Of a DNA stretch of 64,000 nucleotides, positions 11,101 through 38,100 are shown piece after piece. Under the pieces are notes generated by a model. That model did no database searches. It was not told the DNA's origin and saw only the letters and a list, made by a program, of their open reading frames with translations. The position numbers were made by a program, and so were the translations under genes. Origin of the DNA: Lytechinus pictus (Eukaryota); assembly GCF_037042905.1 (NCBI RefSeq), contig NC_087245.1:26104001-26168000 (forward strand). The letters are read 5' to 3'. How positions within the stretch are numbered: position 1 is the stretch's first letter; every line of letters begins with the position of its first letter.

Positions 11101-14100
11101 GAAAGTGTAGCCCCTGAGGGCGGGGCCACAAGTTGTGTTGCTATGCGCATGGCTAACTTGCTCCAGCAACTGGCTGGTGCTGCTCAGTTATGTATGGTCA
11201 GCCTTCGGTCAACAGGGGCCGCGGAACGGTTTTCAAAGTGGGGGGGCTGACCATGCAAAAAATCACAATCATATGGTAATTTTTACGTTTTTGTACACGG
11301 TTTTGGAAAAAAGTGGTGGGGCTGAAGCCCCGCCAGCCCCCCGCTTCCGCAGCCCCTGGTCAATATTTGTATACTATTGAATCCTGCAAAGTCATGTATG
11401 GATGTAACAAAAGAAATCCGTAGATGGCAAAAAGATGACATTGGCACATACATCATGTACATACAAAGAATAGAACACCATTTGTCATTATGAAGAACAT
11501 TGATTACATGATGATCTATAGTGCTATATGATTGATGGAAGTACATAATTATTAAATTAGTTAAATTCAATTGTTTTTTAATTTCCACTTTCAATTTTTC
11601 ATATCTACAATTATTATACAGAACATAACTAATTATTAAAGAGAACATAACTAACAAAAATTGAGTATTGCACTTTCACAAGTGCATGAGTTGCGTTAAA
11701 TATACCTGTATGTATACATACATGTGTGAACCATGAAAAACATGTAAGGAAAATAATTAAAAGAGATAACAGTATTATATACCTTCTTATTATTCACCCT
11801 TGATTCCCACTCTCTCTTTTTATTGGATATCATGGAGCTTTTGGTTGATAATTTTGGTTAAAGATTTTTGAGGAATGGGTTATTAGGGAGGGCAGCTTAG
11901 TAAAGTTATGGTATGTATTTATCATGTCCACAACTGTTTTTATCCATATTTTTTTTTTACTTGCGTGTTTAACGGATTGGTGAGTTATTAAAATTAGCTT
12001 ATTTTTGCTCAATATATGAAAGGCTTAGCTTCAGCCCTTGTGCTCATTGGTCAATATGTTCACCATTTGATTTGATTTAATTATTTTTCCTCCCGTTATG
12101 ATGTGATGTATGTGGTCAATTTTATACACCGGAAATTGCATGAATAACACTGATTACTAGATTAAGTAGCACACACATGTCTTTATAAAAGGATTATTTT
12201 ATTCACCTGACCTCAAGTCTTAATGCCATTTATTGTTTGTTAAATTTCTGATGAGACAATTACAATTTCATGTAATATTCTTGTACACAATGTAGTCTTT
12301 TACTATTTGTTTTTTTTTTCTACTGTTTTATATCATTTTCTTGTCATATCAATCAGCATTCATCTTGTCTAATTTAGTGTGTGATTATTGTTATGCAATG
12401 TATTGCAAAGGACCATTCTTATTCCCAGCAAACACTATTAAATGGTACTCTGCACTGAAGGAGTGTATTGCTCCCAGGTTCCTATTGTTTTGCTTACATG
12501 TGGAGCAAGTGCATATGTGTGTCTCGCCGTGTTAGTTCCATTGTCATACGTGAACCTTTTTATTTGTTCTTCACAATCCAGAGTCCAGAGATGTATTCTT
12601 GCATTTCACAATCTTTTGCGCCCTTATTGTGGCATCACTACTGTGCATTCATCATGAGAAATGTGTTGACAATGGTGTACTCGACACAGAAATCACTGTA
12701 TTTCTCTCTTTTATAATTGAATCCAAAGCATTCCAGGGATCTCACTGCTACATTTATTTCTTCTGATTAATTCCTATTCTTCCCTGCGACTGGAATTCCA
12801 GTCAGTCAATGTTCATTGAATAAATCAATTTTCTTTCTTGGTACTTGCTATCTACATGTTGGTAAAAGTTGTTGACCCGCAGTTGGAAAAGTTGTCCTCT
12901 CATGATCATGAATGTTTGTGGTGCCTTTATTATGAAATGCTGAAGTAAGAATAAACGATCGATGCATTTTTGGTAATGTGCTCAGAGGTGCAATGAGTAG
13001 GATTTATCCTATTTAGTAGGATGTCTAAGGGGAAAATGACACTAAATCTGATTTTTCCCCCAGAGATAAGTTTTTGAAACTTGTAAGAATGATGATTTTT
13101 TTTTTTGGGGGGGGGTATGTTTTTCAAAATTTGAAAGAAAAATAGGATTTTAGGCTTGAAAATAAGATAAAGAGAAATAAAGAATAGGATATTTTCACAA
13201 TTAGGTTTGGCAGCTCTGTGTGCTGCATATTGCTTAACATGACGTGCATTGGTTTGATATTGGTTTGTATGGAATCTTATTATTTTCTAAAGAATTTCCA
13301 GCATGTCTTGATGATCAGCACAGATGTAGCAATGGTCGTTGTATTCCTAAGGACTGGGTCTGTGACGGGGATAAAGATTGTCATGATGATTCCGATGAAA
13401 ATAATTGCGACTGTAAGTATATCACTTTATTTAATGTGAATACAGGGCTCCGTTGCACAAAGCTTTAAAGGGATGGTCCGGGCTGAAAGTATGTATACAC
13501 TGTAGCTTAATAAATAGAGTAGAATTTACTCAGCAAAATGCCGAAAATTTCATCAAAGTTAGATAACAAATAACAAAGTTATTGAATTTTAAAGTTTGGC
13601 AATATTTTGTGAAAACAGTTGTCATGAATATTCATTAGGTGGGCTGATGATGTCACATCTCCACTTGTTCTTTTGTATTTTATTATATGAAATTAGTTTG
13701 ATTCAAATTTTTTCCTCCAAGAACTAGAAAAATTGGATTGACAACTGATTTAGTGCATTAGATATTTATTGCTGCAACTTATTTCATTATAAGGGAGACA
13801 TATTATTCACACAAGTATGAATTAATGAAAAAATTATGATTTTAGGTAATAACATAAGAAAACGGAAAGTGGAGATGTGACATCATCAGCCCACCTAATG
13901 AATATTCATGACGACTGTTTTCACAAAATATTGCTTAACTTTAAACTTCAATAACTTTATTATTTGTTATCCGATTTTGATAATATTTTCAGCATTTTAC
14001 TCAGTGATTTCTACTCTATGTATTAAAATACCAATATTTTCAGACCGGATCATCCCTTTAATAGCGATGGTTGTACAATTCGGTGGCTTCACAATATCGT

Positions 14101-17100
14101 GCGCCATCTATCGGTTGCAGCGGATGGGCCAATTCTAACTTCGGGGTCGACATCACGCACAGGCGCAGGCAGCGCACAGTGCTAGTTTTATTGCAATGTG
14201 ACTGTTATGCTTCAAAAATAAAATGCAGCAAAAGCTGGTGAAGAATGAACCAAAAACGGTCTATAATTTGCAAAGAAATATGCGGCAAATTTCTCTACCA
14301 CCTCCTGAACCCTGGTAAACAGCATGATTTTATGCAAGCCGGCCGAGCCGCGTCGGCCAGTGCAGCATAATCGAAACACCAGCAGCAGATGTTGACTTTT
14401 TCCCATGAGGCATTGCGAATTTTAGCCTGTACGCTGCAACCGGCAGGTGGCGCACCATATTTTGCATCCACCAAATTAATGTTTGTTTCTGATAGTACAG
14501 TTTCAGTCAGTGCAATTAGTCATAGGACGTTGTTTAACTATCATTTCTCAATTTGTGTTACAGAGCCCAGGGTCTCGTAACACAAAGGTTAGCGATTAAT
14601 CGTACGCTTGATTTTCATGATTGACTGTACATAGTAGTCAATGCAATCACTCGTAAAGACATTCTTTTACAATGATTGCTGAGCTTTGTGTAAAGGGGCG
14701 CCTGATTAGATTATCATGAATTTATTCAATCATAATGAATTCAGCAAGATCCCTTTTTCTGGAGATATCATTAATGTTGTGTATTATAGTATTTCATGAA
14801 ATTTAGCACTTTTTATGATTTAATAATCACAATTCTACACAAATGCAATTTTCATGCTTGCATATTGTACTGTAGTTTAAAATAGAGGTGAGCTATTTTT
14901 CTGATACCATTAATTCTGTGTCTGTCTTTCCAAAATTTTTTTGTAACCTACAAGAGAATAGGCTGATGCTTTTAAAAGCTAAGAATATGATTTGCTTTAA
15001 TACAAATACCATAAAAGCACCATTCTGTCTGCCCTGGCCCTATAAATGATCAAAAGATCTCTCCTTAACCCTAACTAGGCCGGGCTTTTTTGGCTGTTGT
15101 GTGGCCGGGGGGGGGGTTGATTCAACCCCCCCCTGAGATCTCGGCCGCCGATCGCGCGAGCGCCGCAAAAATTTGCACGCTGGTAGTGTGCGATGTAATC
15201 TACAAGGCTGTATGGTAAAATTTTCCAAAATAATGAGATTTTATTTTATATGAATTAATTATGCTAATTTATGCATAAATCATACTTTTTGCTCTAATTC
15301 ACTAAATAAAGCTCCCGGAATGCTAATTTTTGGTAAAAATATTCTTTGTAGCATTCTTAACAATGGCAATTGAAAAAAACTTCGGTTTGGAAATCAATTT
15401 CTTATGTATTTTATTGTTTTATGAATTTCTTATGTATTTCTTTGTTTTTCAACCTTTTGTTTTTCTTTGTTTTTTTCACCAGATTTATTGCACAACCTTT
15501 TTTAAGCATAATTATGCTAAAATCAATTGCTTTCAGCTGTTAAAAGTAAAAATAATCATATCTTTATGAATAAGATGAGAAAACTCAATTTGCATTGACT
15601 TTGTACACAAAGTCACGTTTTGGAACAATTTTTGGTCTGACATGCACTTACAAAATGTTGCGTAATTTCGGAACTGCGTACCCAGGCGTCGTAAATTTGG
15701 TCTCAAAAGATGCGCGAGACTTAAAAGTATAAACTCTGCAAGTGGCGCGGTCAACAAATTTCGCGCGGCGGAATGATCGCAGAAAATGTTGAGGGGGGGG
15801 TTGATTCAACCCCCCCCCGGCCATTTTAGGGTTAAAGATGATTTCTTCATAATGGCAAGCATTCTTGTGTAACCCTATGGCATTTATATGAGCAATTGTT
15901 ATTCAAATAGTTTTATACCATTACACAATCAGAAAATCAGTGTTCTCCTCCATTCTAGCAGAGTTACTAAAAAAACATCAAGGGAGCGAGAATTGTACAT
16001 GTGTAGAATTGATACATGTATATGCATTAGTAGCGTCAAAGTCAAGAAACCAGCAATTTCATGAAATTTTGAAAATAATTTTCTTATCAAGTTTAATTTG
16101 TGATTAGTTCAGCTTGCCTTTGTTATTCATTGTCACTTTAACATAGAAGGCAAAATAGTAACTATAATTTAGTATTATTTTATAGGCATTTTGCACAGTG
16201 AAAACATCATATGAATTTCAAATGTTTGTAGTTATTGGTGCATCAGGCTGGGGCAGTCTGGGTATGGAAAGGGCTAAGTTAACAACCAAGGCCCGCAGGC
16301 CATCCTTCCCGAAACCACCCTGATGAAACCAAAACGGATTACAAAGCACAGTGCAGATACATGTATCAGTAGACTATCGAGCACAACTCTAAATATAAAT
16401 AATACTGTATATCAAAAAGAGAGAACGTCACAGAGTAGGCATAGGCTGATCACACACAGGGTGTTGCAAGAAAATATTTGCAATCAATCGCAAATATTCT
16501 GTTGCAATTTTACAATTAATAGATCAATGTTAGCTGTAGCAAATCAGATTACACTTCTTGTTTCAAGAAGCAGACCAGCAATCAATCACAAATTTACAAT
16601 TAATCACAAGAGATATGATTGATTCCGACACCGAAAATAGCCTTGCAATTGATCACAAGTTTCTTGCAATGCCCCATAAGTCACTGAATCTCATATGCTC
16701 ATTGTACTCACCACACTTAACATATCAACCTTACCCCTTTCAATGCATTGATAGCCTCACCAGCTCCACCGAATAACTGCACAAAGAATAACTTATTTCA
16801 GTGTGGTAATGGAAAGTGTGTCCCTCAATCAGCCAGATGTAATACCAGTGATGATTGTGGTGACAACTCGGATGAAATTGATTGCAGTAAGTTCTAGATT
16901 ACACTCATTTCTCTCTTGTTGGATATAATGTACAGTGTAAGCTTTAAAACGTATTCTAATGGACCTCTATCTTAATTTCATCCCTTTACCCTCCCCCAAA
17001 AAAAGTACAGAGTCATATTTTACACCGATTTTTCTCCTATATTGAATATGGTGTACAGTAAATTCCACGCTTATAAGACTTATTTCAATGGACCTCCTAC

Positions 17101-20100
17101 ATGCATCTTATTTTTCATGCCCTTACTTAAGAAATTATCTTATCTTACGAATTGCCCAAATACACAAAGGATTTTTTTTTTTTGGGGGGGGGGTGAGGGA
17201 TGAATGTGATTAAATTTCAGCTATTGATTTATAGTTTTTTTTAGCGTTAAAAGAATGAGATTCAATATGATATTTGGTACTGTGGTAGTAAATTCACTGT
17301 CCCCATTGAAAATCAGATCATATTTTTCTGTGTGTATTCCACTTTTTGATCACATATGTGTCATTGCCAGGCCCAGTCTTACAAAGAGTTAACGATTGAT
17401 CCAATCAACCTGAATGATATGGAAATCCATCAATGTAATAATTTTTGTACAGGAAATTTGAACAATGTCCTTTGAAAGCAAAGAGAAGTCCAGTCACTTA
17501 ATTTTCAAGAAAACAACGAATGTATGAATATGCATAATATCTAGAAAATATTTTGAACAAACATGAATTCTAGATGTTGACGTTGCTGGCTTTCCATGTT
17601 TGTAGTTGTTCTGATCAATCGCAACTCTACGTAAGACGGGACCCAGAAGATATTGCAAAAGTGTCTCCATACTGTACCTCTTTGGGTTAGGAAGATTTAT
17701 TTATCAGGTCTTTTGTTGATTTACAATGATAATTTGATGTTTGAAAGTAATGTTTTGTTTGTGTACAACAGAATGTGAGGTAGACTATCCATGTTCTCAG
17801 AGGTGCGTGGATTTGAACGCTTACTTCTGGTGTTACTGCGTCGAAGGCTTCACGCTTCTAGACGACCAGGTCACCTGTGCTTTACAACCAGACCGTAAGA
17901 TTTTTACAGAATTTTATTTAGTCTCACTACAAATGATAATTAATTTTTCAAATCAATGGCCCTTGAAAACAAAATGAAAAACAAAACTGAAAAGTTTGAA
18001 AGTCTTGACGTTTAAGAGAAACATGCAGCAGCTTGGCATCTGCTGTAAGATATAACAAAAAAAGAAATCTGTTCCAGTTACTATGATGAAAGGTGACACT
18101 TCTGAAGGAAGAAGGGGTTATTGGCTCAAGCATTTTAGGGACCTTCTAGGCTCACCAGTTCAGGTCAGTGATACAGGTCAGTGTCACCTGTAGCTGGAAG
18201 GCGAAAGCGAATTAAATCACTCTGACTTGCGGGTCTCTCCTCTTGATATAATCGGTTGCTGGTGCACAGGCAGACCACTACACCATGGTTTCCCCACTAG
18301 TCTTAAAATAAATGATGCAGTGGTTTCTTAACATGCAAAGGCAGTGATTGTCCTCTTCATGAGGTCTATTTTTAACATCCTATCCAAGGGACAGAATGTT
18401 TTCATCATAACGTGGTAATATCCCAAGTGACACGTGATACGTTTTGTTTTCTTTCTATCCAGAACCTAAACCCTACCTACTGTTTTCGAATCGATACCAG
18501 CTTCGCACAGTTGGCGTCGATGGCTCCAACTACACTACACTTCAGGTTAATGTCACCAATGCAGTGGCATTAGATTATGACTGGGAGGAACGGATGATAT
18601 ATTGGTCTGATGTCACTCAACAGAACAGCAAGATCAGTCGTGCTAATATCACTCATGGAACTACGGAGGTAAAAGATCTATAATTCTATTCACTATTCAA
18701 TTGATTGTTATTTTCATTTTTTTTTTCCTTTTTTAAAATCTTTTTTATTTTATCTTTATTACTTTTTTTTTCATTTTTGTTTTTCTGTAATTTTCAGTAT
18801 TTTTCTTTTTCAAAAATTTCTTAAAGGGGAAGGAACTTGATTCAGAGGAGCTCTAGCCAACATTGAATATTTTACCTTTATGGTGCCATGTACAATATGA
18901 TAGCCTTGATACAAACACCCTTTCATAGAATGAAGTGGCTCTGACATAGTGGCTCTCTTCTGATTTGCCATAATGTGTTTCATAGAAATGGTGCACATTA
19001 ATTTTATCAAGTTTAGATAATGATATATATATAATGATAGTAATGTGACGTATAAATTCACTCTGTTGAAAGGCGCACAGAGAATAAGTTAGTAATTAGA
19101 AAGAATTTGAGAAAATTATTTAAAGACTTGTAGGAGTTCAGCAGTTGAACAGTTTTCAGAAAGGCTACATGCATTTCACATAATAGGTCATGCCCGAGCG
19201 AAGGATCTGTCCTCTCAAGTTTGTGGAACTTTTGGAATGACAAGATAACCAGGGCCCTGTTGCATAAAAGTTACTGTTATGGTAACTTTGCCATCCAATG
19301 GTAACAATGCCAATTAGCCAATCAAAATCAAGGATTTCAGGGAAGTTACTATTAGATGGCAAAGTTACTATAATAATAACTTTAATGCATCGGGCCTAGA
19401 TTAATGGCCTTAGAGACCTATATTATTTGATAATCGATATTCAGAGATATAAAAAACAATCCAACAGGCAATCTAAATCAAAACTTGTGGTGATAAATAG
19501 TTTGAAAAATAAAAATGAATAACAATAAAACTGGGATTTCTGGAAGCGAGCTCCCGAGGTCTGTTTTACAGGGGAAAGTTTAAAATACCTGACTTGGCAC
19601 ATCTAGGACCTAACCTGGTTGGTTCTTTTATTGTTTACATTTTATTATTCAATCAGACGACAATGTTATGTCATGTATCAAAAATTGGAGATCGAAGTGT
19701 CATAATTTTGGACTCGTATCTCAAATTGATTTCTGACAATTATCAACATTAAGATTCATTACTTATTATTACTTATTATTTTGCCAGTCAACTATGCATA
19801 TACTCCAACCGAATACTCCACAACCTATGATTAATCTCAATCACTGCTAATATTGTTAGCATGGTAATAGGTGTCGCGATCATGTTTTGTAAGGTATCCG
19901 ACCTGCCAACTACCAACATAAATGTTTAGGAATCGATTTCTTGCACGGCACCTATGCCCTAGAACAATACATTTTTAAAACCTGTTTGTTTTTCACAAAC
20001 AAATGAATAATAATATCATTAACTATTCAAATTGATACGTAAGTTTGATTAGAAGAATAAACTCCAATGTATCTTTGCAAGCTGTGCTGTAAACTACATC

Positions 20101-23100
20101 CCCGACCTCGACCACCACTATGCTGATAATCAAGTATTATCATGATTATTGAATTAAGGCAATTTACTGCCTACAAATCCTTTTTGAGCTCCTTGTCTCA
20201 GTTACAGTGTTTGACAGAAATAGAACTCTTTATCAATTGTAATGATAAAATTTATTAATCAAACAAAATTTGAAAACATGAAATTTCATTTAATCTAAAC
20301 CATGGTTATCAAGTTTATAAATCTTTCAGGAAGCTTTTCTTTTCAAGTATGCTTACATCTAAATTCATTACAGCCTTTTTATGGACTTCCAATTCGGGAT
20401 AATATCCTTTTACTTGGCACACCAAATTACAAAGAAGTTCGATTCAAATTCATTGTACCATTGTTGAATGTTAAATCTTTTTTTGGACAATCATAAATTA
20501 TATCTTCTTATTTTGACGTCAATAATTCTGCTATTCTCTGCTGACAGCAATTACGACCAGCGTGCTCAAACGCTGAATGAACCATCCAAATTTCACTTTC
20601 AAGAGTTGTCATGAAAGTTATTTTGTATGATGAGAAAAGTATTTGAACATCACTACTTTGTTCCCTTCAAGTATGAATTCATTTTTGTTGATTGCTTTTT
20701 CTAAAGTACTCTTCTCAGGTTAAAGGTGCACAAAGAGTACTTTCTAGTATTCACCAATTGGAACCCCCTAAAAACATCTAGTAACCTTGTCTCAGATTAA
20801 AAACTGAATTACAGTTTTTACACTTTACACCATCTGACCATGATGCCTCAGTAATTGTACCTCGTTTCCTCAATAATTAATTACCTCCTTCACCACTTAA
20901 CCTTTTGATTTGATCATAGAGAAATATTTTGACTTTTGATATCTGAAGCAAGATATTATTATTTTCATCCTACGATAAATCTTCCAACATTAGTTATTCT
21001 TATCTTAACGTCGATTATGATATATGGCTCTTCCAGTGAGACCATTTTCGCCTCTACTGCTGATGTTGAAAGCCTTAAAATGATATAAAATTATTTGAAA
21101 ATATTTCACATTTATATCAATGGATTATATAGAAGTATGATATGTACTTGATTGGAGATAATTTGCAAGATGAATCGGATGAGGAATATTTCAATGATTA
21201 ATTTCCTCGGATTGTTCATTGAGATACGATTGATTAATAATTATATATGTGGGCCATCCTGGGAAAATGGGTATTATAGGTGAAATTTTGGATTTTGTTT
21301 TTTTTATGTTTTCTGGTACATGGACACATGTACAATGTGTATACAAAATATTAGAGTCTAATTCATATTTAAATTAGAGATATGGCCAATTGAATCAGGG
21401 GTACCCCCCCCTGCCTGGCTGTATCGGTCGTCATGGTAGTCGGGCTTATTATTCATCTTTTCATGATAGGGAAATGTTGGTTCTTTTGTAACGCCCAACA
21501 TACCTGGCATAGGCGAGGTGATCTTTTGTAGTGCAGACATAATTTTTATATATACACAGCTAGGCGAATACAATAAAACAAATTATTCTACATATTCAAC
21601 CGCACGCACACTAGAACCCACACCCACACACTCACATTACATGCAAAAAAAACCTTATGGAGACTATTTGTCATACTATATATAGTTCGTCATAGCGCGT
21701 AGTTTTAACATGAGAGGAGGTTCCCAGATCCAATGACCAGGGGAAGATGGGGTTGGGTTATTCATCTGATTTTTTTGTTGTTGGGGGGGGGGAGGGGCAG
21801 CTTATCATTTTTTGGGGGTTGCCCACCCCCACAGGCGCCGCAGAACATTTTTTTTGAAAATGGGAGGGGCTGTCCATGCAAAAAAAAATCACAATCAAAT
21901 GGTAATTTTTTACATGTTTATACATGCGTTCTGTGGAAAAAAAAGTGGGGCCAAAGCCCCTGCCCACCTCCATCCTAGATTTGTCCCTGCCCTTACCCCC
22001 CCCCCCCCCCTCAAAAAAAAAAAGACACCGCCATGCTGTTTGTCCATACTTCACTTTCTCGCAAAGTAAAATCTCAAAAAAATCATGCTTAAGCTTTGGA
22101 AAATAACCACAAACAAAATTCAATTTTGCAAAACCAATTTTTTTCGGTGGCAATAACACAATAGTGAAAAGCTGATGCGAGCTACATTTCATAAAGATTT
22201 AATATGACAGCAACTCTTGATGAAATATCAACTTTCATTGAACTAGCGAATCAGGAAGCAGAAGGTTCACTGTTTTCATGGTAGTTTTCATTCGAGCAAG
22301 TGATCATATCCATATTTAATGAAATGGGCCACATTTGGTTTCTTTTTAGGGATGGGGTAGTCATGAAAATATATTTCACAAATTGCTGCCCAATTATCTA
22401 GATCACTGAAGGATTTTTTTTTAGGTCACTTCGTTTGAAAAGAAGAATAAAACTGTGCATAAAAACTTGGCTCCACATATTAATACGACAGGTATTATAA
22501 CTAACAAATACTCACAAATACATAGTCATCTTTTCTCTGTTACACTCTGTACACGTGTGTAATGATATGCGTTGTAAACATCTTATGCTTGAATAAAAAA
22601 GATTATATCAGAGTTTAATTCTTGATATGGAAGAGACTACATACATTTACTCTCTTCTATGCAGCAGTATTAGCAAAACTCAGGAATGTGCATCGCTCTC
22701 CACTGTCCAAATTTGCACTAAAAATGATATAAAACACGATAATCTCTCCTTAGTGTGTGTGTTTAACATTATCACAAACTTCTTAATACAGCAGCAAACT
22801 TACCACATTTCAATTTTCTACAATGACATCCTTCTAATGACTTAGCAAACGTTACAAATTAAGTTTAATTTTTTTATCGAAAAACTTCAGAGTTTGTTCA
22901 TTCAAAGTAAAACATGTATTCATTGTTCAATTTCCTCTCCTACCGGGGAGGCCGCGAGGTGCCTTGTCCTCATCTAAGATCTTTCCATATATCATATTCC
23001 CTCTATTTGGAAAATCCAGTTGATAGCTTATCTGGGAGTATCTGAGAGACTATGTCAGCAGGGTTCACCAAAGGGGATAATTTTCTTCCTCTGCATTGTT

Positions 23101-26100
23101 TGCTTTCTTCATGTTCCAGTCTTAAAAATGCCACGTTCCGATGACTCAAATCTACATGTTTGATGAATGCAATTGAAAAGTTCACCGATATTAATGTGTT
23201 ATAAAAACAGTCACATTACATTCTCATTTCTTCATGATTCATGGACATTTATCAACAACATGATATTTAAAATACATTAACTGTTCACTCTTTGGCTTTA
23301 TTTAAATGTTACTTGTATTTCTAATAAAGGTGGAAGTACTCCCTGATGTCATATTTTTCTACCAAAAATAATAAGAGTTAACTATTGTTGGGTAAAAAAA
23401 TCCCTCCAAAATTCATGAGATGTTCATATTTAAATGTTTAATTTGATCACTTGCAAAAAGCTTTCTCTGCATGAGCCTTTATCCAAATTCTATATATTTT
23501 TTTCATTTTTTATTGTTTTTATCATTTTATATTTTTTTATATTTTCCATAATTCTAGATTTCATGTACTAATAGTGGTAAAATAAATTTTAAAACAATAT
23601 CTTATAAAACGGCAATTAATTCGTGGAAAATCGGTTACAACTGACATGATAAAGTCAAAACTGGCACACTATTTTCATATAGAATATGGATAAAGCATGG
23701 AAAGCTACCTGAAGCTGTGGTAATGGTGAATCCCATATCAGATACTTAAAGTACTTCTTGAAGGGCTGCTGTCAGCTGTATGTTGGTTCTGAGATGTCTT
23801 GTACTCACTGCACTAATACAGTTGCTCTGTACATCCCGTGCCTTTAACATGTTTAACACAACGAAAGAAAACAAGGCCAATTAGTTAACACATTTTCAGA
23901 GTTAAAGTTTATTTAAAAAAAAAAATACTTAAGAAAAAAAAACTATAAAAAAAAACAATTAAAACTATAATTTTTTTTATTTTCAAAAATATGTCTTTTC
24001 ATTTTTTTTTTAATATTAAATGATTTTGTGTAGAAGGTTAGCGAACCTCATGTAATGTAGCTCGACCAGATTGTAGAAAAAATAAGAAATACCCCCACAC
24101 CCGCCCCCAAAATATATTGTTATTTTTGAATAAATTTCTTTCTGTTTTCTAGTTATAATTTCGATATCATTTGCACAGCTTTGGTGAAGCTCATACCAAA
24201 TAGACCCCACCCCCTCCGAAAAAAACCAAATTTGAAATCAGAAGTCCGACAAATAAGAATTTGTTAGAAGAGGGGATTTGAAAAATGTCCATAATTAACC
24301 GATTTAAAAGGGTACTCCGAGCTGAAAATAATTTCATCAAATGTAAGCAAATGCTGCAAATTTCATCAAAATCTGATAACAACTAGATCTAAAAGGGTTT
24401 TTCATGCATTATAAAAACAGTTATATGCACGTCTTAATAAATATTCGTTAGATGGGCTGATGATGACACCCCACTTTAACTTTTCTTATAACAAAACATG
24501 AAATCATACTTATTTTATTTGGTCATACGTGTGTGAATGATATGTCACCTTTTTGCATTAATTAATATCTAGTCTTGGAGGGGGGGGGGGGGATAGAACA
24601 AACATGATTTCATGTAACAAGGTGAGACATCTTTGCATCAGTTTGTCAAGTAAATTCATAAAAACATGCATAGAACTGTTTCACCGAAATCCATATCTTT
24701 ATAAATTATTATAGCTCTTTTACTCCTTGTCCAATTTTGATTTTTTTTATATACATTTTTTACAAACTTGTTGCATGTGATAGATTTAACTTAAATGGTT
24801 ACAAGTATGTAACGAAGGCCTATCTAAGTACGTGCAGATCTAGATCTAGTTGATAGCCTAGGCATACATAAGTTAGATCTTAAAAAGGCCGTCAAAGTCC
24901 CGGACAAATACCGCGAATCGCTGCAGCAGTCGCATGTAATTTGACGTTTAAAGTCGTTCCTAAAAAAGCTCTCTCTCGATCGATCCACATAAACACGCAA
25001 CACAAAATTCACATTCACGTGTTTAGTTGCCATGTTCCTCGCATCGCAATTATCAATGAAATTAACAAAACAACTCAATCTGCAACATAATTTAACTTAC
25101 CTTCATGGATTTCAGCCAAGGGAATTAAATTCAATCAACATGTATCCGAACCCGCCACCAAATATATCGAGCCGATATCCACAGTTCTGAAAAATAAAAA
25201 TGCGCCTGACATTTTTTTTTATTTCCCGCGGGTTGTTTGTTTTGTTTTTCCTCGCGACGCGCGCCAGACAAAAGTTTGATGACACGCGTATTTAAATGAC
25301 GTCCTAGCGCATTTATTGTCTCTCACCAATAGTCTGGTTTTTGCGCGACGCCACACATATATAATCATTGGCTGATTCAGTGTTCCTTCATTACATTTTC
25401 ATAATGTCAATTCATTCTGAAGTGTTATAAATCTTTCTAATTTGGCAAGTGGCAACATCGTATGTCCATGTTGAGATAATATGATCTTTACGAGATCATT
25501 ATGGGAGATAACTTTCAAATTGTTTGAAATTGACTTCTGATATGTGGCTTTGAACATGCTATCCTCTGAAGACTTATACGAATGTTACGTAATAGAATTC
25601 GTAAATTATACAAATAGTATGAAGTATAATTAGAATTCTATTAGTAATAATGAAGTATAAGTCGAGGAGGATCCCACCCTGCATCAAAACAATTTTATTC
25701 CCTCCCGATTATACAGAAGTCAATTTTGAGATGCAGACCTTATTTTGTGGGAATACAGCGCCATCTATCTAGAAATAATCTATTCCGATGCACATTGTTA
25801 TTATTATTATCCCCGACTTAAGCACGAGCTGCCATTTAGCGCTCAGTGCAATCAAGGAGTTGATCCTGTCGGGTACCCATTCACCTCAACTGGGTTGAGT
25901 GCAGCACATGGTGGGTATATTTATTGGAGAAGGAAAACACATCATACCTGGAATTCGAACCCACGTCCGTCTGATTGAAAGACGAGAGTCGTAACCACTA
26001 GACCACGGCGCCCCATTAAAACACATACAACAAATCTATACGAACCAAATGATTATTTGGTGTGTACATCTTGAAAAATTACTTAAGTGGATTGGAAAGC

Positions 26101-29100
26101 AATCCTGTTTTTAGTTGTTTACATACAAGATCTTTTTGTTTTGTATGACCTTAGCCGTCTTTGAAAAGATGGTTCCTATTCATTGGTAAGGGCCTTTTAT
26201 ACAGAACTGGCCCTGTGTGGAATTTTGATTGCTTTGAATTGCATTGTGTGAATTTCACTGCCTAACACCTGGGAAATGCATCAGCATTCCCATTTCCCAG
26301 GTGTTAGGCAGTGAAATTCACACAATGGGATTCAAAGCAATCAAAATTCCACACAGGACCAGTTCTCTATAAAAGGCCTTAACCAATGAATAGGAACCAT
26401 CTTTTCAAAGACGGCTAAGATCATACAAAAACACAAAGATCTTGTAAAGAACTAAAAACAGGATTGCTTTCCAATCCACTTAAGTAATTTTTCAAGATGT
26501 ACACACCAAATAATCATTTTGTTTGTACAAATTTGTTGTATGTGTTTGAATGGGGCGCCGTGGTCTAGTGGTTACGACTCTCGTCTTTCAATCAGACGGA
26601 CATGGGTTCAAATTCCAGGCATGATATGTTTTCCTTCTGCAATAAATATGCCCACCATGTGCTGCACTCAACCCAGGTGAGGAGAATGGGTACCGACAGG
26701 ATCAACTCCTTGATTGCACTGAGCGCTAAGAGGCAGCTCGTGCTTAAGTCGGGGATAATAATACTAACAATGTGCCTCGGAATAGATTATTTCTAGATAG
26801 ATGGCGCTATATTCCCACAAAATAAGTTCTGCATTTCAAAATTGACTTCTGTATAATCGGGAGGGAATAAAATTGTTTTGATGCAGTCATGCAGGGTGGG
26901 ATCCTCCTCGACTTATACTTCATTATTACTAATAGAATTCTAATTATACTTCATACTATTTGTATAATTTACGAATTCTATTACGTAACATTCGTATAAG
27001 TCTTCAGAGGATAGCATGTTCAAAGCCACATATCAGAAGTCAATTTCAAACAATTTGAAAGTTATCTCCCCTAATGATCTCATAAAGATCATATTACCTC
27101 AACGTGGTCATACGATGTTGCCACTTGCCAAACTAGAAATATTTATAACACTTCAGAATGAATTGACATTATGAAAATGTAATTAAGGAACACTGAATCA
27201 GCCAATGATTATATTTATATAATTATTAATAAATTGTTTCTCAATGAAGGCGAGGAAATTAATCAGTGAAATATTCCTCATCGATTCATCTTGCAAATGA
27301 TCTCCGATCAATCAAGTACATATCATACTTCTATATAATCCATTGATATAAATGTGAAATATTTTTAAATAATTTTTATATCATTTTAAGGTTTTCTACA
27401 TCAGCAGTAGAGGCGAAAATGGCCTCACTGGAAGAGCCATATATAATAATCGACGTTTAAGATAAGAATAACTAATGTTGGAAGATGCATCGTACTATAT
27501 AAGGATGAAAATAATATCTTGCTTCAGATATCAAAAGTCAAGATATTTCTCTATGATCAAATCAAAAGTTTAGTGGTGAAGGAGGTAGTTAATTATTGAT
27601 GAAACGCGGAACAATTACTGAGGCATCATGGTCAGATGGTATAAAATGTAAAAACTAATTCAGTTTTTGATCTGAGACAAGGTTACTAAATATTTTTAGG
27701 GGGTTCCAATGGGTGAATACTAGACAGTAATCTTTGTCATGTTTGTGCACCTTTAACCTAAGAAGAGTAGTTTAGAAAAAGCAATCAACAAAGAAGAATT
27801 CATAATTGAAGAGAACAAAGTAGTGATGTTCAAATACTTTTCTCATCGTACAAAATAACTTTCATGACAACTCTTGAAAGTGAAATTTGGATGGTTCATT
27901 CAGCGTTTGAGCACGCTGGACGTAATTGCTGTCAGCAGAGAAGAGCAGAATTATTGACGTCAAAATAAGAAGATATAATTTATGATTGCCCCAAAAAGAT
28001 TAACATTCAACAATTTGGTACAATGAAATTGAATCAAACTTCCTTGTAATTTGGTGTGCCAAGTATAAGGATATTCTCCCGAATTGGAAGTCCATAAAAG
28101 GCTGTAATGAATTTAGATGTAAGAATACTTGAAAAGAAAAGCTTCCTGAAAGATTTATAAACTTGATAACCATGGTTTAGATTAAATGAAATTTCATGTT
28201 TTCAAATTTTGTTCGACTAATGAATTTTATCATTACAATTGATAAAGAGTTATATTGCTGTCAAATACTGTAATTGAGACAAGGAGTTCAACAAGGATTT
28301 GTAGGCAGTAAATTGCCTTAATTCAATCATGGGTAGGTCCATGATTCAATAATACTTGATTATCAGCATAGTGGTGGTCGAGGGTGTAGTTTACAGCACA
28401 GCTTGCAAAATTGGAGTTTATTCTTCTAATCAAACTTACGTATCAATTTGAATAGTTAATGATATTGGTATTCATTTGTTTGTGAAAAACAAACGTGTTT
28501 TAAAAAAATTATTGTTCTAGGGCATAGGTGCCGTGCAAGAAATTGATTCCTAAACATTTATGTTGGTAGTTAGCAGGTCAGATACCTTACAAAACATGAT
28601 CGCGACACCTATAAACATGCTAACGATATTAGCAGTGATTGAGATCAATCATAGGTTGTGGAGTATCCGGTTTGAGTATAAGCATAATTGACTGGCACAA
28701 TAAGTAATGAATCTTAATGTTGATAATTGTCAGAAATTAATTTGAGATACAAGTCCAAAATGATGACACTTCGATCTCCAATTTTTTATACATGACATAA
28801 CATAGTCGTCTGATTGAATGATGTAAATAGTAAAAGAACCAACCAGGTTAGGTCCTAGATGTGCCAAGTCGGGTGTTTTTAACTTTCCCCTGTAAAACAG
28901 ACCTCGAGAGCTCGCTTCCAGAAATCCCAGTTTTATTGTTATTCATTTTTTTTTTTTTTTTTTTTTCAAACTATTTATCAACACAATTTCATTTTTTTTG
29001 TGTGTGTATTTCCCTCGTGATCGAGGAGTTAGTAATGAAAAAACTCAATTTCAGCGATACAAATGTACAAATCAAAGCAGCATCCTCTAGGGATCATAAT

Positions 29101-32100
29101 GGCTTATACAATATTTTATATCAGATGACTGATTGTTAACATTCATGAAAAGTTCTCTTGGGAATCCATGTATTATATAAAGTTACTTTAAATATAGTTA
29201 AGTCTTCTTGGTAGCATATTGTATAATTTTGCATGGCACAACGTTGATGGTTCATGGTTGATAGTCTTGTACAAGATGAGTACAGGGTGGAAGAAATTTC
29301 AACTTTGATTAAACAATGGATCTCTGTCCAGTGTTTTTACCAATACCAAAATTGTCGGAGTGCATGTCTGCATACATTCTAAACTTTTGAAAGGTTTAAA
29401 GGTTACTTGATCCAACTTGTTGTACACTTCGGGAATTTGGAATACTCTTAGTATCAACGGCTTGCGTTGGAAAGGATAATTAGGTGCTTTGTCAAGTTAG
29501 AAATCCGATCTGTTTAAATCTTCCTTGTTCAATCTTTTTAATTAAAATCTTCTTTGTTCAATGAATAGATAACAAGAATACATGTACATGTATATAGGTC
29601 CATGGTCTGACAAATCTTCAATGTAGGTTGTCAAGGACAACATGAATGAATGGGAAGGTCTATCAGCAAAATAATGTTCAGGCTTGGGCATGTAGCCTAT
29701 TTACAAAGTCTGGTGAAAATGTACTAGCTACCTCTTTTAATATAAGAATATAGTAATGAGCTATTCATTTAGGCGCCTTGCACGGATGAACTACTAGTTG
29801 GAACAATTTTGCGTGTATTATATATTGTTGTCTGGTAAACCTCAGACAATGAGATTTGCATCTTGGCAAATAAAATTTATTTCAACATGAAGTTCCTTCC
29901 AGATCCATAATCATTTAATGAAGCATTTTTTATCATGCTTTTTTCCTTTGAGGAATGTAAAGCTTCATATTACAAGCAACAAATGGATGATAGTTGAATT
30001 TCGTGACAAAACTTGGCTTTTCCCAGCTTAAAAGCAATTCAAATGACTATGAATTTGCCACTAACCAATCGGGTTATGCGAATATGTAAAATGGCACAGT
30101 AGTAAGTCTATGCATTATCCACGCGAGTTGTGAGATATCTAGCGATAATATCGCTGTTGTGAAGCTCTTGGTACAACTGTTTAATTTGTTTAAAATTTAA
30201 CACAAGAGCATATCGATCATCGTTTTATAAGCAGTGTTGTGCAAAATGCAGCGTTGTGCAAAATGCCTTTTGTGTACAATGTACTCTAGGTTATAAAGAG
30301 AGGCCTGTGCCAGTCCATGTTATAGCGATGTCAGTTTATACTCCAAATCGATGCTTTTTAAACATGTTTAAACGAAAATGGTTCTTGTAAAAGATTCCTA
30401 TGAGGGATAATTCAAAATGTAGGCATAACAATTTTTATACATATAGATACACATGTTCATAATGTCCGGGAATGTCACCCATTATTATGATATGGCGAAA
30501 GATTCATGCCAATCTATGGCAAAGGAATGGTAGCATCTATAGAGTAAGAAACTCTCCATCTTTGGGATGGTGAAAACAAAATCGACTGTCAGAGCAGTAT
30601 TAACTAATACAAGTAAATCCAGTACACAGTTGGCCATGACCATCAGTATTATCGGTGCTCCGGTGTCGTATTGAATTCTTCTGTACACAATCCGATTGGA
30701 ATATAGGCGTATATACTGTAGTAATTACTCGACAACAATTTTAAGAAGGGTTAAATTAAATCCCTTGGTCCAGCACAGTTGCTGTTATTGGTTGGTATAC
30801 TAACCACACATTAGAACGAGTATTGTAGAAAATTTGGCAATGCCAAGTAAGAAAAAGTTGGAAGCAATTTTATTATTCGGATAAATTGAAGTCAAAATAA
30901 GGCTGTAATAAGGGTAAGGCTCGCAATCCAAATCAATGACATGGTTCGATGTCATATCAGCATACGGCTTAATTCGATAAACCAAAGAGTTTACAGAGTA
31001 AATCATTATAATGATGTGAAGGTGTGCTGAATCAGCGAAATTTCTAGAAGAAAAGATAGGGCAGCGCCCTAATGAAGAAACAGTGTAGGGCAGCCCCCTG
31101 ATGTAGAAAGGTATGGCTCACATACCAAAAATATGGGTGGAGGAGCCCTCCTGCCCAAGTCAGCATGACTTGCATGCCTTAAAATATCAGAGACTGCCAT
31201 GATAGCTGCCGCTTTTACTCAACTCCAGGCGGCTTTCCATGCCTGCTCCCCAACGGAGAGCAGGGCTGAAGGAGACCATAGGCTCATGTCTCCTCAATAC
31301 TCACCATGAAGATAAAGATGTGTAGTCACTGCCGTCACACTTGAAAAAGATGGTTCCTATTCATTGGTTAGGGCCTTTTATAGAGAACTGGTCCTGTGCG
31401 GAATTACATTTTTTAATAATATGAATTTTATTGGATTTTTTTTCTAGGTATTACATGATCTTGGTGTATTGAATCCTGATGGTATTGCTGTAGATTGGGC
31501 TGGAAGGAACCTGTATTGGTGTGATAAAGGGTTAAATGTCATTGAAGTATCAAGGCTTAATGGAAGCTATCGCAAGACATTGATCAAAGAGAACCTGGAT
31601 GAACCTAGAGCCATTGCTCTCGATATCATTAGAGGGTAAGTATGCATCATGTATTGTGCTGAAACGACGTCACAAACAACTCGTTTGGCATTTGATACCT
31701 TTCCGTATATCTCTATAGACTATTATGAAAAACATCCACAACCCAGTTTTAGCAAGGGGTTGGTCTAAGGGGTTCCATGACATTGCGACAATTGCTCCGA
31801 TGGAAAATCAGCAAGTTAAAGCCAAACATAAAATCTAACCTCCAAATACTGAATATGGTCATGATGATTTTGAAATGAACAAAAATAAAATTAATGATGT
31901 AACACTTCAACACTCTGCTATGTTTTAAGAGATATATCTCTAGTTATTATTGGTTATACTCATGCTGATGTTTATTTTTTTAATTAAAAAATATTTGTTT
32001 GTACTATTCTAAAATTGTATGCTTAGAATAATTTTCTGAAAGCCCTTTATTTGTTGAAGTTAAAAGTTGTAATATGCCTTGTTCTGTTTCTCTCTTAATA

Positions 32101-35100
32101 TGAAATCAGTTCATCAATATCTGTTCAGATATCAACCTCAGCTTAGATGTTATATTGATTATACATGTACATAATTTTGTATTGTAAACAGTGTCTTGTT
32201 TTGGACTGACTGGGGATCTTCACCATACATTGGAAGAGCAAGTGAGTTTAGTTGTTTATTCATTCATTATATTTTCTTTGATTTACACTTTTTGAATCAT
32301 TCATTTAAATCCCAGCTTAAAACTGAATACCTGTTTAATTATAAGAATAATGAATAAAATTGCAAATCCTTTTTTTCATATGAATAGATTTGTTGATATA
32401 AATCATTAGTAAGTCTGCCCACCTTCCTGCTTTGAAATTTCAAGTCGCATCGATAATCCCTTTCTCATGTGATATTTAAGACATCACTGCATTGGTCAGA
32501 TCATGACCATGGGACGTGCTTTACTGTGTACTAATCAATGAGAGTTTGTGTTAAATATCATGTGCATATTGGCACTTAAATCATGAATTTATGTCAGACA
32601 TAACTCTTTGTGATCCCCCCCCCCCCCGTATACATGTAACATCAGTCCCTTTTATAGCAATTGAGCCATTCCCTTAGTTTGATTTCTGTAATTTTATTTA
32701 TGTATCTCTAAAGGATAGAGATGGTTAGTGTAAAATGGTATTTATCTTTATCCTACTTGTAGGTCTTGATGGACGCCACTTCACAAGATTGGTAACGGAG
32801 AAGATTCAGTGGCCCAATGCTCTAACGGTCGATTACACGACCGATAGAATTTATTGGGGAGATGCACGGGAGGATAGGATAGAGTCTGTCTCTTGGAATG
32901 GAACAAATAGGTAAGAGTGTTACCTGCATTTGTTTCACTCTTTTACTTTTATAAAGAGGAGTTCATCCTTGTCATAGTACATAATAGATAGCAGATGCTG
33001 TTCTACTGTCTGTCTTATTTGAGAAACTTGCCTCTTTTTTTTTTTTTACTGCAAATTGATATTTTAGACCGGATTTATAAAACAAATAATGCACAGATTT
33101 GATGTTAGTGTTGATGTAGGCATCTCCAGTATTCCATTGTTATGTAAAAGCAAATGATGGAGTGTTTCGTGCTTGTCTCACAATGGAACTACTCTTTAGT
33201 GCACTGTAATGCCAATTATTCACATACAACTGTGCATTGTTTTTATCGTACCACATACATGTATAATATGGATAATTAATGATAGTTTCTAATTTACGTT
33301 TGTTGCAGACATACTGTGGTAGGATCTAACGTCCCGCATATCTTTGCCATGAGCATGTTTGGCGATTACATCTACTGGACCGACTGGGACCAACGTAGGG
33401 TCAAGAGGGCTCACAAGTTCACTGGTCAAGATCAGTTAGACCTGGTCCTAGTGGTACATAGACCAATGGATATTCAAGTCCTTCATCCTCTTCGTCAACC
33501 CCGAAGTAAGTATTCAACCCTTACTGCAATGGTCTTACAATAGGAGGGGATGTTTCAGGAGGTATTTGCTGTAGGGGTATCTGTCTATTAATCTCACTTT
33601 CCTCTTAACATAGTTTAAGGACCAATATAAAATCATGGTTCAAAGTTATCTTCAAGGGACTTTTTTAAGGAAGATGAATGCCTTTATAAATGGTGCTTAT
33701 GTATTAACCATGGCATAATGCCTTGCAGAGTACCTGTTGACATTGAGTAAAATGGCCTCATTATATGAAATGTTGGTACGTATATATTGTACCCATTGAA
33801 TGTACATGTGTATATTACATCGGCATGTCCATTTATTATGTTTCTCTCTATAGTTTTTAAATAATATCTTGTCTCTTTCACACTGGCATGTAAACAGTAA
33901 ATATTTCCATTTGATTGGCAATAAAATCTTATGCTAAATACTGTACATAGATGAGTCCATTGTGATATCCCAAGTATGTGCTGTGAAAGCATGTTAGTAT
34001 TCTGGTACCCATTTCACAAAACTTATTATCACAACAGATTTGCAATAACACTAAAAAGCTACTGAAATCATTTGCTTTGATTGGCTGATGGTAAACTTTT
34101 TATAAAAATTGTGCGTTTGTTATGATATCAAGTCTTTACGAAACGGGACCCTGATAATTTATTTGTTTTGTTTTTTCTTTCAGTTGAGAACAATCCTTGT
34201 GGTAAGAGCAACGGCGGCTGTTCAAACCTGTGTCTTCTGAATCAAGACGGCGGAAGGACGTGTGCGTGTCCTAATAATTTCTACCTTGCTTCCGATGGAA
34301 GGACATGTGTATCGAACTGTACTGGAAGTCAGTTTGTGTGTGGGAATGATAAGTGTATTCCGTCGTGGTGGCATTGCGATCAAGAGGATGACTGTGGTGA
34401 CGGATCGGATGAACCTGATAACTGCCGTAAGATCTCGTCATTTATTATTGTATGATGATAATGATATATATTAATAGTCACTTTCTAACAGCTCTACTGA
34501 GCTATTGGGGATTCCCTGTGGTTGTAACCTTATTGCAACTACAAAATGAGGCTCAGCAGCCAATCATGATAAAGGTTTCCATTGTAGATGCAATAATGTC
34601 AAAGTTACAATAGTTTAAGTTTTTATGAAACAGGCCCCTGATATATGGGTAATTGAAAATAGATATGCATTCAAATTTAATTTGAAATTGTTCACCGATG
34701 GTGTGTTCCTGACTTCCAAAGGGAAGCTATTAATCTTTGTTTTATTTGTTTTGTTCAGAAATATTGAATATTTAAAGCAAAATATTTCTTGATCTGTGTA
34801 AATTTTCAGATCAGATCGACCAAAATTCTGTTGTCAGTCTCCATTGTCTTGAAAATAAATAAATTAAGATTAATTGCCATATTTTCATTAGATTTGTGGG
34901 TCACTAGGTTCTAAAAAAACTGTAATATGCTGTGTGGATTAAAGTTAAACTTTAGACAAAAAAAATTTACCTGATAAATGATCATTTAAGAAGCCTTACG
35001 TGAAATGCCTAATCCTAATTTTAGAATCCTAAAACAACATTTTACCTGATAAAGGATCATTCTCGAATCCTAATGTTATTCATTCTGCTACCACCATTCA

Positions 35101-38100
35101 ATTCTGTATTATCAAGCACATCACTTTTATTCTATACCCAGTCCCACGTACAGCATTTTTTGTTTGTTTTTGTGAATGTAGGTCCATTCTATTGCACACC
35201 TGGTCAGTTTCAGTGTCAGAATGCATCTGAAGCTGATAATGAATGTATCAATCCTGCATTCATATGTGATGGTGAGAAGGACTGCAGAGATGGATCAGAT
35301 GAAATGCGCTGCTGTAAGTTGATATCACCTTCTGTTTTCTACCTCATAATCCTAATTGAAACTCTTAAATGATCAAACTACGACGTACATCCTTGCTGGT
35401 GTTATAGCTACATTGGTCAGGCCTAGCCAGCACTCATCATGATAAGCAATGTTTTGACCAACACAAATTTCAAATGAATTATTTTAAACACAACTACTTG
35501 GAAAGAAGAATTGATTTTCTTTCTCCCATCTTGTTTTATTTGCAAAATTTACAACAAGCACTTTTTTTTCTTATCAATGATTTGACAATGTCAGATAGCT
35601 ATGGTATTATGATTGCTCATTAGTTTGGCTTTAAGGCAACTATCACAGACTACAAACAACTTTGTATTACCATGAAGTAGTAACCACTAACACCATAAAC
35701 TGAATGATTATGACTTTGCAAAACTGTCCCAACACATTCAAAGATGAAGTCTGTTTGCCCCCTCCCCCTTCATGTCATATATGTTACACTCAAAGACACT
35801 CAATAACCTTATGTGAATGATGTTAATAATTTGATTGCTATTGCAGTTTTACCAGTACACTGGTTTACCTGCACTGGCATGTTCTTTTCTTGTTCATATG
35901 GAAATTCATATGCATATAAAGAATGGATGAGTGATTATTCTGTTGTATTTTTTTTTCTGTGTTTGTACATACAGTGAATCATACATGTCTGCAGAATCAG
36001 ATCAAATGTGAGAGAAGCAACATATGCATTCCCAAATCCTTCCAGTGTGATGGCATCAATCATTGTGAACATGGGGAAGATGAAGCTATGTGTGGTACGT
36101 ATTTACAGCTTGATTGTATCATACAGTATATACATAATTAAAGAGATTTTTAGTCATGTTATTAAGTTACAATTGTTCATCATTTGTTGACACTTAATGT
36201 TTTCTTGCTGTGTTGACATAGTAGGGCCCCCGGGGTAGGGCCAAAGCCGATTTATAGCAAGATAACATATCTCCATTAATAAATAGCTCTTTCAAGCTTC
36301 CCTAACACTTACATGTATCTGAAGCCTAATGTGATAGGTAATTGACTTTTACTTGGATAGTACTTCACATTGACGGAGCTGCCAAGTAGTACTGATTTTT
36401 GTCTCACCTGCATAGCAGAGTGAGACTATAGGCGCCGCTTTTCCGACGGCGACGGCGGCGGCGGCGGCGGCGGCGGCGACGGCGGCGTCAACACCAAATC
36501 TTAACCTGAGGTTAAGTTTTTGAAATGACAGCATAACTTAGAAAGTATATGGACCTAGTTCATGAAACTTGGCCATAAGGTTAATCAAGTATTACTGAAC
36601 ATCCTGTTTGAGTTTCATGTCACATGACCAAGGTCAAAGGTCATTTAGGGTCAATGAACTTAGACCATGTTGGGGGAATCAACATCAAAATCTTAACCTA
36701 AGGTTAAGTTTTTGAAATGTCATCATAACTTAGAAAATATATGGACCTAGTTCATGAAACTTATACATAAGGTTAATCAAGTATCACTGAACATCCTGCA
36801 TGAGTTTCACGTCACATGACCAAGGTCAAAGGTCATTTAGGGTCAATGAACTTTGGCCGAATTGGGGGTATCTGTTGAATTACCATCATAACTTTGAAAG
36901 TTTATGGATCTGATTCATGAAACTTGGACATAATAGTAATCAAGTATTACTGAACATCCTGTGCAAGTTTCAGGTCACATGATCAAGGTCAAAGGTCATT
37001 TAGGGTCAATGAACTTTGGCCAAATTGGGGTATATGTTGAATTACAGCCATAAATTTGAAAGTGTGTTGGTCTAGTTCATAAAACTTGGACATAAGAGTA
37101 ATCAAGTATCACTGAACATCCTGTGCGAGTTTCAGGTCACATGATCAAGGTCAAAGGTCATGTAAGGTCAAAGAACTTTGGCCACGGTGGGGGTATTTGT
37201 TGAATTGCCATCATATCTCTATAAGTGTATTGGTCTAGTTCATAAAACGTGGAAATACGAGTAACCAAGTATCACTGAACATCTTGTGCAAGTTATAGTA
37301 GTTTTCAAAATCAGCACTGCTGCTATATTGAATCGCGTGATGCAGGTGAGACAGCCAGAGGCATTTCACTTGTTAGTATTTAGTACTGAAAAATTAAAAG
37401 AATACTAATGATAATCGCTAGAGGGTATTCATTTGTCTCGCAATCTACTATGGTCAACAAGGAAATTCGTGATCACTCTCGCAAAAAGTGTTCACTAGCT
37501 TTCTAGGAAATTTGTGATCACTCTAGCAAAAAGTGCTCACTAGCTTACAAGTTCACGAGCTTTCGAGTGCCGCTGCAACTCTTTATCAAGTGACGAAAAT
37601 ACTAATGATTTCAGGCAAAATACTGATTTTTAAAGTTTCAGTTTTATGTGTTGTCCGATGGTATTTTCTTGGAAATGCCGATTTCCTTAGCAAAGTACTG
37701 AATTTTAGCTATAAAATACTCGGATGTTCTTGTTTAGGTTGGCAGCTATGCGCTGACATGGTTGTCCAGGCTAGTACAATGCATTTGAACTTACATAAAC
37801 AACAAGTTGAATCGATTTTGTCTTATTATTTAGATCAAGTTCAGTGCCGAGATGATCAGTTTCGGTGTAATGCAACAGGTCGTTGCATACCTGAAGTATG
37901 GCGTTGTGATGGTGAAGATGATTGTGAGGACCGATCGGATGAGTTGGGGACATGCCGTGAGTTCTGACACGTTATTGCTATTGAACCTGTATATAATGAC
38001 CATCAATGTTAGACATGAATTGTGTTTACTGAAATCAAACTTAATGACAACCCATCTTGGCCAAGAATAGAGTATTACGATTATAATCATACCTTCATAA

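Follow-up and report, generated by a model that had tools for sequence, protein, structure and literature searches.

In Dictyostelium, DIRS-1 was reportedly found inserted into DIRS-1 by Cappello and colleagues in 1984. DIRS-1 is a tyrosine recombinase (YR) retrotransposon for which, as relayed in PMC5633606 and PMC7192593, self-insertion is the rule and forms centromeric clusters. The specificity of the DIRS recombinase was described in 2020 as experimentally unstudied (PMC7192593). The ends and the junction copy of animal DIRS1-like elements are laid out in PMC3266345 (Piednoel et al. 2011) and PMC6681497. As described in the former, these elements are about 5 kb long, with inverted termini that are partly conserved and partly divergent, a right extension, a pair of internal complementary regions sharing a 3-nt AAT overlap near the 3′ end, and ATT...ATT ends without a true target duplication. 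In mice, long palindromes are stabilized by central deletions (PMC8701086), and inverted repeat copies within one pre-mRNA are the usual animal ADAR substrate, with hyper-editing in one sea urchin tabulated in PMC5625713. Here, we describe a palindrome of DIRS1-type copies in a 64,000-nt stretch of Lytechinus pictus DNA (assembly GCF_037042905.1, contig NC_087245.1, positions 26,104,001 to 26,168,000, forward strand), referred to below as the window, in which it occupies an intron of a gene that, judged by its domains, is an LRP1/LRP2-class receptor.

From their termini and internal structure, the arms of the palindrome are copies of a family of non-autonomous DIRS1-type retrotransposons, a known kind of element. 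We consider it very probable that two copies of this family inserted independently in opposite orientations, with their 3′ ends facing, and that a central deletion followed. The family shares with the animal elements of PMC3266345 all of the structural features listed above, but it is non-coding, carries a short interspersed element (SINE), and has no gag, reverse transcriptase (RT)/RNase H, or YR frame, and the copies in the window lack their ends. As in Dictyostelium, a YR retrotransposon lies in or against its own copy; in contrast, the arrangement here is found at one of ~24 loci, end to end, in a gene intron. The mouse transgene palindrome of PMC8701086 likewise combines inverted copies, a small central deletion, and a short spacer, whereas the present one is natural, its arms would have been 4-5% different from the start, and its deletion is symmetric with filler. 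Like the substrates in PMC5625713, it would bring together, within the same transcript, a mobile element's two copies in inverted orientation, but the stem is unusually long, the loop is short, and editing is only predicted. A narrow open-access literature search, covering titles and the openings of abstracts, found no end-to-end DIRS pair in an animal.

An earlier note on this DNA had reported a giant palindrome with a 12-bp loop. Self-BLAST bore this out, as it gave two inverted blocks around the loop at 26279-26290: 25359-27214 on itself (94.0%, 28 gap positions, E=0) and 19475-21247 against 27216-28994 (90.0%, 94 gap positions, E=0). The arms run from 19482 to 21248 and 25359 to 26278 on the left and from 26291 to 28994 on the right, and their innermost parts (26139-26278 and 26291-26430) are spaced by 12 nt. 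Altogether, the inverted region covers 9.5 kb, or 74% of the host intron. Two aspects of the structure were absent from the note: the left arm is interrupted by an unrelated mobile element of 4,110 nt (21249-25358), and the right arm makes up just the initial 2.7 kb of an element extending to 31405. The parts of the two copies are as follows.

19482..21248, + strand: left copy (subfamily B), outer part, 5′ 2.5 kb missing; 95-99% to L039-L043 and L046
21249..25358, no strand: non-coding mobile element of 4,110 nt inserted in the left copy; ends TGTG...CACA, TATA on both sides
25359..26278, + strand: left copy, inner part, the element's 3′ end without its terminal 78-79 nt; 8 changes in 913 nt against L046
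25556..25672, + strand: left copy, internal complementary region (inverted circle-junction copy)
26164..26278, + strand: left copy, 3′ inverted terminal repeat, conserved 115-nt core
26279..26290, no strand: loop of 12 nt, read as filler at a symmetric deletion; adjacent bases partly echoed
26291..31405, − strand: right copy (subfamily A), near full length, without its 3′ terminal 79 nt and 5′ terminal 95 nt; 98-99% to L031-L034
26291..26405, − strand: right copy, 3′ inverted terminal repeat, conserved core
26901..27017, − strand: right copy, internal complementary region; 77 nt correspond to the 3′ terminus and 44 nt to the 5′ terminus of intact sisters, AAT overlap
31345..31405, − strand: right copy, what remains of its 5′ inverted terminal repeat, including a TATA-like motif; stops 42 nt short of the 3′ splice site

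In a genome search with the right arm, the best 40 of 3,283 candidates were scored. Query positions 92-2900 were matched by at least 13 other genomic copies at 91-99%, each starting at the base after the loop, and the full element is ~5.3 kb long and dispersed in the genome. Of 20 loci retrieved (L031-L050), 17 show both of their ends, and these have inverted termini of ~155 nt that are 86-96% alike, consisting in intact copies of a 115-nt core with a further 42 nt outside it at one end and 79 nt at the other. The two terminal cores (116 nt) differ by 1-3 bases in 15 of these copies and by indels in the other two; the window copies retain the cores only, without the outer termini. Two loci with a single inverted terminal repeat were fragments. 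About 0.6 kb inside the 3′ core lies an internal segment that is the inverted join of both ends (44 + 77 nt, overlapping in AAT), a circle-junction copy. Its match to the termini is 92-100%, and in any one copy the two cores vary together, both of which are indirect hints of movement through RNA, cDNA, and a circle. All 17 complete copies start and end in a shared AAT (ATT termini) without a longer target duplication, and their flanks follow A-N-AAT-T, with A at -2 in 16 and T at +1 in 13, although two of the 17 represent one insertion. Two family copies, L043 and L048 (G000:C8), have common flanks, so they are a single insertion that was duplicated later.

The family element has a longest stop-free frame of 105 aa, with no gag, RT/RNase H, or tyrosine recombinase frame found, and tblastn on it with 52 long frames from YR loci and 77 long frames from all loci gave 0 matches. 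However, coding relatives with similar ends exist. The same junction copy is present at 86-91% in four of the 30 tyrosine recombinase loci fetched. In L091 and L090 it is 88-91% like that of the family, one terminus is 84-86% alike, and RVT_1 and Phage_integrase domains are encoded, with RT and YR in a single 952-aa frame in L091 and in separate frames in L090. The lack of RT and YR in the family, together with coding relatives that have similar termini, therefore identifies it as non-autonomous and DIRS1-type. The L091 element (L091:3337-8300, G000:C6 near 21.26 Mb) is DIRS1-type, with a 5′ end and junction copy 86-88% like the family and a 3′ end that is apparently replaced or truncated. A short relative of 2.7 kb (L052:1081-3749) keeps its two termini and the junction copy along with the broken remains of a YR, and is likely an intermediate between the coding and non-coding forms. 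A Penelope inverted-repeat origin was our first idea and was dropped once the DIRS termini and the junction copy were found.

The arms were compared with the dispersed copies. Within the inner region, 3-7 changes over ~915 nt separate the right arm from L031-L034, and 8-9 changes separate the left arm from L046, L039, and L040; between the two arms, 37 of 911 positions differ in the inner region and 92 of 1689 in the outer. All 40 inner diagnostic columns follow each arm's own subfamily, so gene conversion between the inner arms was rejected. Among the 128 outer diagnostic columns, 126 show the A state in the right arm, and 116 show the B state in the left arm. Trees were built with 18 rows for the inner and 16 rows for the outer region; L045, L048, L049, and L050 were excluded from both as interrupted or partial, and L044 and L046 were also excluded from the outer tree. 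The arms fell into separate, strongly supported groups, and an approximately unbiased (AU) test against a single clade gave p=1e-117 for the inner and 4e-6 for the outer region.

These results overturn two claims of the earlier note. It had called the structure a head-to-head duplication, but the arms belong to two subfamilies, a single clade is rejected, and the right arm runs 2.4 kb further into its element. An inverted duplication in place and a foldback element were both rejected, since the arms are not each other's closest relatives. Movement of the palindrome as one unit with a target duplication was likewise rejected, as the paired form was found at no other locus and the outer ends are truncations. 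The note had also taken the many substitutions and indels between the arms as a sign of age, whereas these differences were inherited from the two subfamilies and each arm is only 3-9 changes from its own sisters. The age of the younger copy sets the upper limit for that of a palindrome, and the whole right copy differs from L031 by 37 mismatches over 5,115 nt; therefore, the palindrome is young and cannot be much older than this distance.

We propose four steps. First, a subfamily-B copy would have arrived, gained the 4.1-kb insert, and lost its 5′ half. Second, a subfamily-A copy, mobilized by a coding DIRS1 relative, would have entered by recombination at an AAT lying on the resident's 3′ end or very close to it, and a near-perfect palindrome would have resulted. 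Third, a central break would have been repaired with the loss of 78-79 nt on each side and the addition of 12 nt of filler. Fourth, the 5′ 95 nt of the right copy would have been deleted between two ATTC microhomologies. The third step is consistent with the 3′ 79-nt terminus, which is intact in all 18 other loci printed and gone from both window copies. The central loss with its filler looks like a repair scar, and the loop may be read as filler because its 12 bases partly repeat neighboring sequence; they were not found in an intact family copy or in the rest of the intron. Because the center already looks like a repair scar, the stability of the palindrome needs no special explanation. As for the fourth step, the 5′ break of the right copy, 42 nt before the 3′ splice site, falls on an ATTC common to the first bases of the element, one of five such sites in 200 nt. 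A census of the terminal core gave 42 matches: 34 form 17 normal inward pairs, six are single, and the two in the window alone point outward side by side. It is plausible that the second copy inserted at the resident's own end.

Several points weigh against this account. The left arm has the A state at 11 of the 128 outer columns, which may reflect an ancestral state or conversion. The order of insertion is weakly resolved, as the inner tree puts each of the two end branches at 0.0033. The central deletion is symmetric within 2 nt, and its boundary falls 1-2 nt away from the limit of the junction-copy complementarity, which we leave as a coincidence; the center deletions described in PMC8701086 are mostly asymmetric. 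The second step stays a proposal, since the original spacing of the copies was erased, and L091, as a candidate helper of the family, lacks the family's 3′ end.

How the second copy came to lie beside the first can be explained in more than one way. Our leading, though tentative, candidate is that the recombinase placed it in the 3′ terminus of the first copy because this terminus resembles the circle junction. The family prefers A-N-AAT-T targets and the 79-nt terminus holds two such sites among five AATs, one of which shares 10 nt with the junction, but the motif is common, with 234 occurrences on a single strand across the 64-kb window. The chance for two of 24 copies to stand tail-to-tail within 1 kb is ~2e-4. 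However, this is a single locus that was picked for being a palindrome in a genome with many families, and none of the 23 other loci in the census has an adjacent outward pair. The symmetry of the central deletion is in favor of this explanation, as is the precedent of Dictyostelium DIRS-1, for which PMC5633606 and PMC7192593 cite insertion into copies of itself, although its self-insertion is described as showing no apparent sequence preference (PMC5633606). The sole inverted YR pair checked also speaks against it, since it is an inverted duplication with 13-kb arms at 99.8%. That pair (L106-L108, G000:C6:24733320-24760999) has inverted arms of at least 13 kb, a 3.5-kb spacer, and a coding YR retrotransposon in each arm. 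Inverted partial relatives on C19 were rejected as another case, as they are 22 kb apart and not joined.

A second possibility, also held tentatively, is that the later copy inserted by chance at an ordinary AAT some way off and that a deletion subsequently took the spacer and both ends. Such targets are short and common, and both copies bear other deletions, suggesting that the locus is deletion-prone. Nevertheless, a rare neighboring event would be needed (a 0.7% chance that some pair among 24 copies lies within 10 kb), as well as a deletion symmetric within 2 nt.

It is improbable that the right copy is instead a linear cDNA that was still incomplete, its ends awaiting reconstruction from the junction copy, when it was end-joined at a break in the resident's terminus. 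The right copy does lack exactly the 3′ part that the junction copy templates, along with most of the 5′ repeat, and PMC7192593 describes DIRS-1 transcripts without both ends and mainly linear, single-stranded cDNA. Yet this leaves the disappearance of the same 78-79 nt from the resident unexplained, the loss at the 5′ end on an ATTC microhomology suits a later deletion, and the ends are finished in all 17 other complete copies. An assembly error that fused two real copies at their shared terminal repeat is highly improbable. Palindromes are hard to sequence (PMC8701086), but the arms are non-identical, the loop bases are unique relative to the intact copy and the intron, and the flanking exons are consecutive and in frame, with the upstream exon region single-copy. 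A fold-back artefact in particular is unlikely because the arms are 4-5% apart and correspond to two different, real subfamilies. Finally, an old inverted duplication in place, kept as a hairpin that regulates the receptor gene or silences repeats, is hardly credible despite the very stable predicted hairpin, given two subfamilies, arms each less than about 1% from dispersed sisters, and a right arm that continues for 2.4 kb.

The kilobase-scale pre-mRNA hairpin proposed earlier stands as a prediction: the inner 1,856 nt are predicted to fold as one hairpin with a minimum free energy (MFE) of -1518 kcal/mol and 95% of bases paired, including 14 perfect runs of at least 21 bp, the longest of 182. 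If the allele is transcribed, this hairpin probably forms in the pre-mRNA and is edited by ADAR as a passive by-product, and production of small RNAs from it is possible. A selected role for the hairpin is unlikely because the structure is so young, and no selected function would be needed to account for the palindrome. An Rfam scan of 15000-33000 gave eight matches, all below the gathering score; seven were microRNA models on the hairpin tip, which we rejected as chance matches by shape. DIRS-1 terminal repeats act as promoters (PMC5633606) and each terminal core here has a TATA-like motif; therefore, putative transcripts starting inside the intron are possible. In a search of sequencing runs, none of the 23 listed contained half of the query sequence words and no RNA run was among the holders listed, which speaks neither way; three raw rRNA-depleted RNA runs (X21-X23) carry the species label.

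The earlier note had also placed a SINE inside the stem, and a tRNA-like SINE head is indeed visible in each arm.

26551..26766, + strand: tRNA-like SINE carried by the family; 75-86% matches elsewhere, A/B-box-like head by eye, mirror copy at ~25805-26015

An ARAGORN scan found no tRNA genes. As to the LINE sequence that the note also placed in the stem, or a Penelope-like remnant there, scraps resembling the G..MG and FM..LE motifs stand in order by eye, and tblastn with 17 frames from GIY-YIG loci gave nothing above a reversed control. That the DIRS recombinase used the resident terminus as a landing site, or captured an unrebuilt cDNA there, and that hairpin RNA could silence the family and its SINE cargo, is a combined proposal that we regard as doubtful.

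The 12.8-kb intron said to split a YWTD propeller was confirmed, with exons matching Ldl_recept_b in frame on either side.

18463..18668, + strand: upstream exon, in which a YWTD propeller of the LRP1/LRP2-class receptor begins
18669..31447, + strand: host intron of 12,779 nt, ~93% of which is three insertions, from GT/AG sites and insertion lengths
31448..31635, + strand: downstream exon, same YWTD propeller as the upstream exon

The intron begins with GT at 18669 and ends with AG at 31447, and the two consecutive exons keep the reading frame across it. Their matches to Pfam Ldl_recept_b are clear for the downstream exon (E 4e-16) and weak for the upstream exon (E 1e-4), the region of which is single-copy in the assembly. 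Against solved structures, the best matches of the host gene are LRP2 and LRP4, and there are no LRP1 chains among the matches listed. The name LRP1 given to the host gene earlier is a tentative one based on motifs. The intron has perhaps been grown by transposons from less than 1 kb to 12.8 kb.

Other repeats were observed in the window and among the fetched loci. The 4,110-nt element has ~19 other near-full-length copies at 94-97%; its targets are AT-rich, and the duplications differ between copies (TATA, TA, TTA, AT). A second palindrome, smaller (~600 nt) and more diverged (75%), lies at 13465-14061, and a palindromic miniature element of ~145 nt at 19250-19396 matches all 39 other loci scored at 80-87%. 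Diverged tandem arrays occupy 36488-37294 and 52758-53435, with units of ~190 and ~75 nt, respectively, and the first has a partial copy at 45030-45237. L092 and L093 (G000:C8, 1.9 Mb apart) share 9,981 nt at 100% identity, which could be a recent duplication or an assembly repeat. Two opposed GIY-YIG frames at L121 and L122 (G000:C8:37400803-37402023) are 0.7 kb apart and are probably an inverted Penelope-type arrangement.

The claim of a palindrome that is old, stable, and functional gives way to a picture of young transposon traffic. The case is a caution that differences between arms cannot date a palindrome if both arms come from a dispersed element. With its natural 0.9-kb near-perfect hairpin, which is probably polymorphic, the locus is suited to watching ADAR and small-RNA responses. 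It is also a testable hint of DIRS insertion at an element's own end and, if this is true, it would capture at the sequence level an instance of DIRS self-targeting outside Dictyostelium, in the form of a kilobase palindrome within a host gene.

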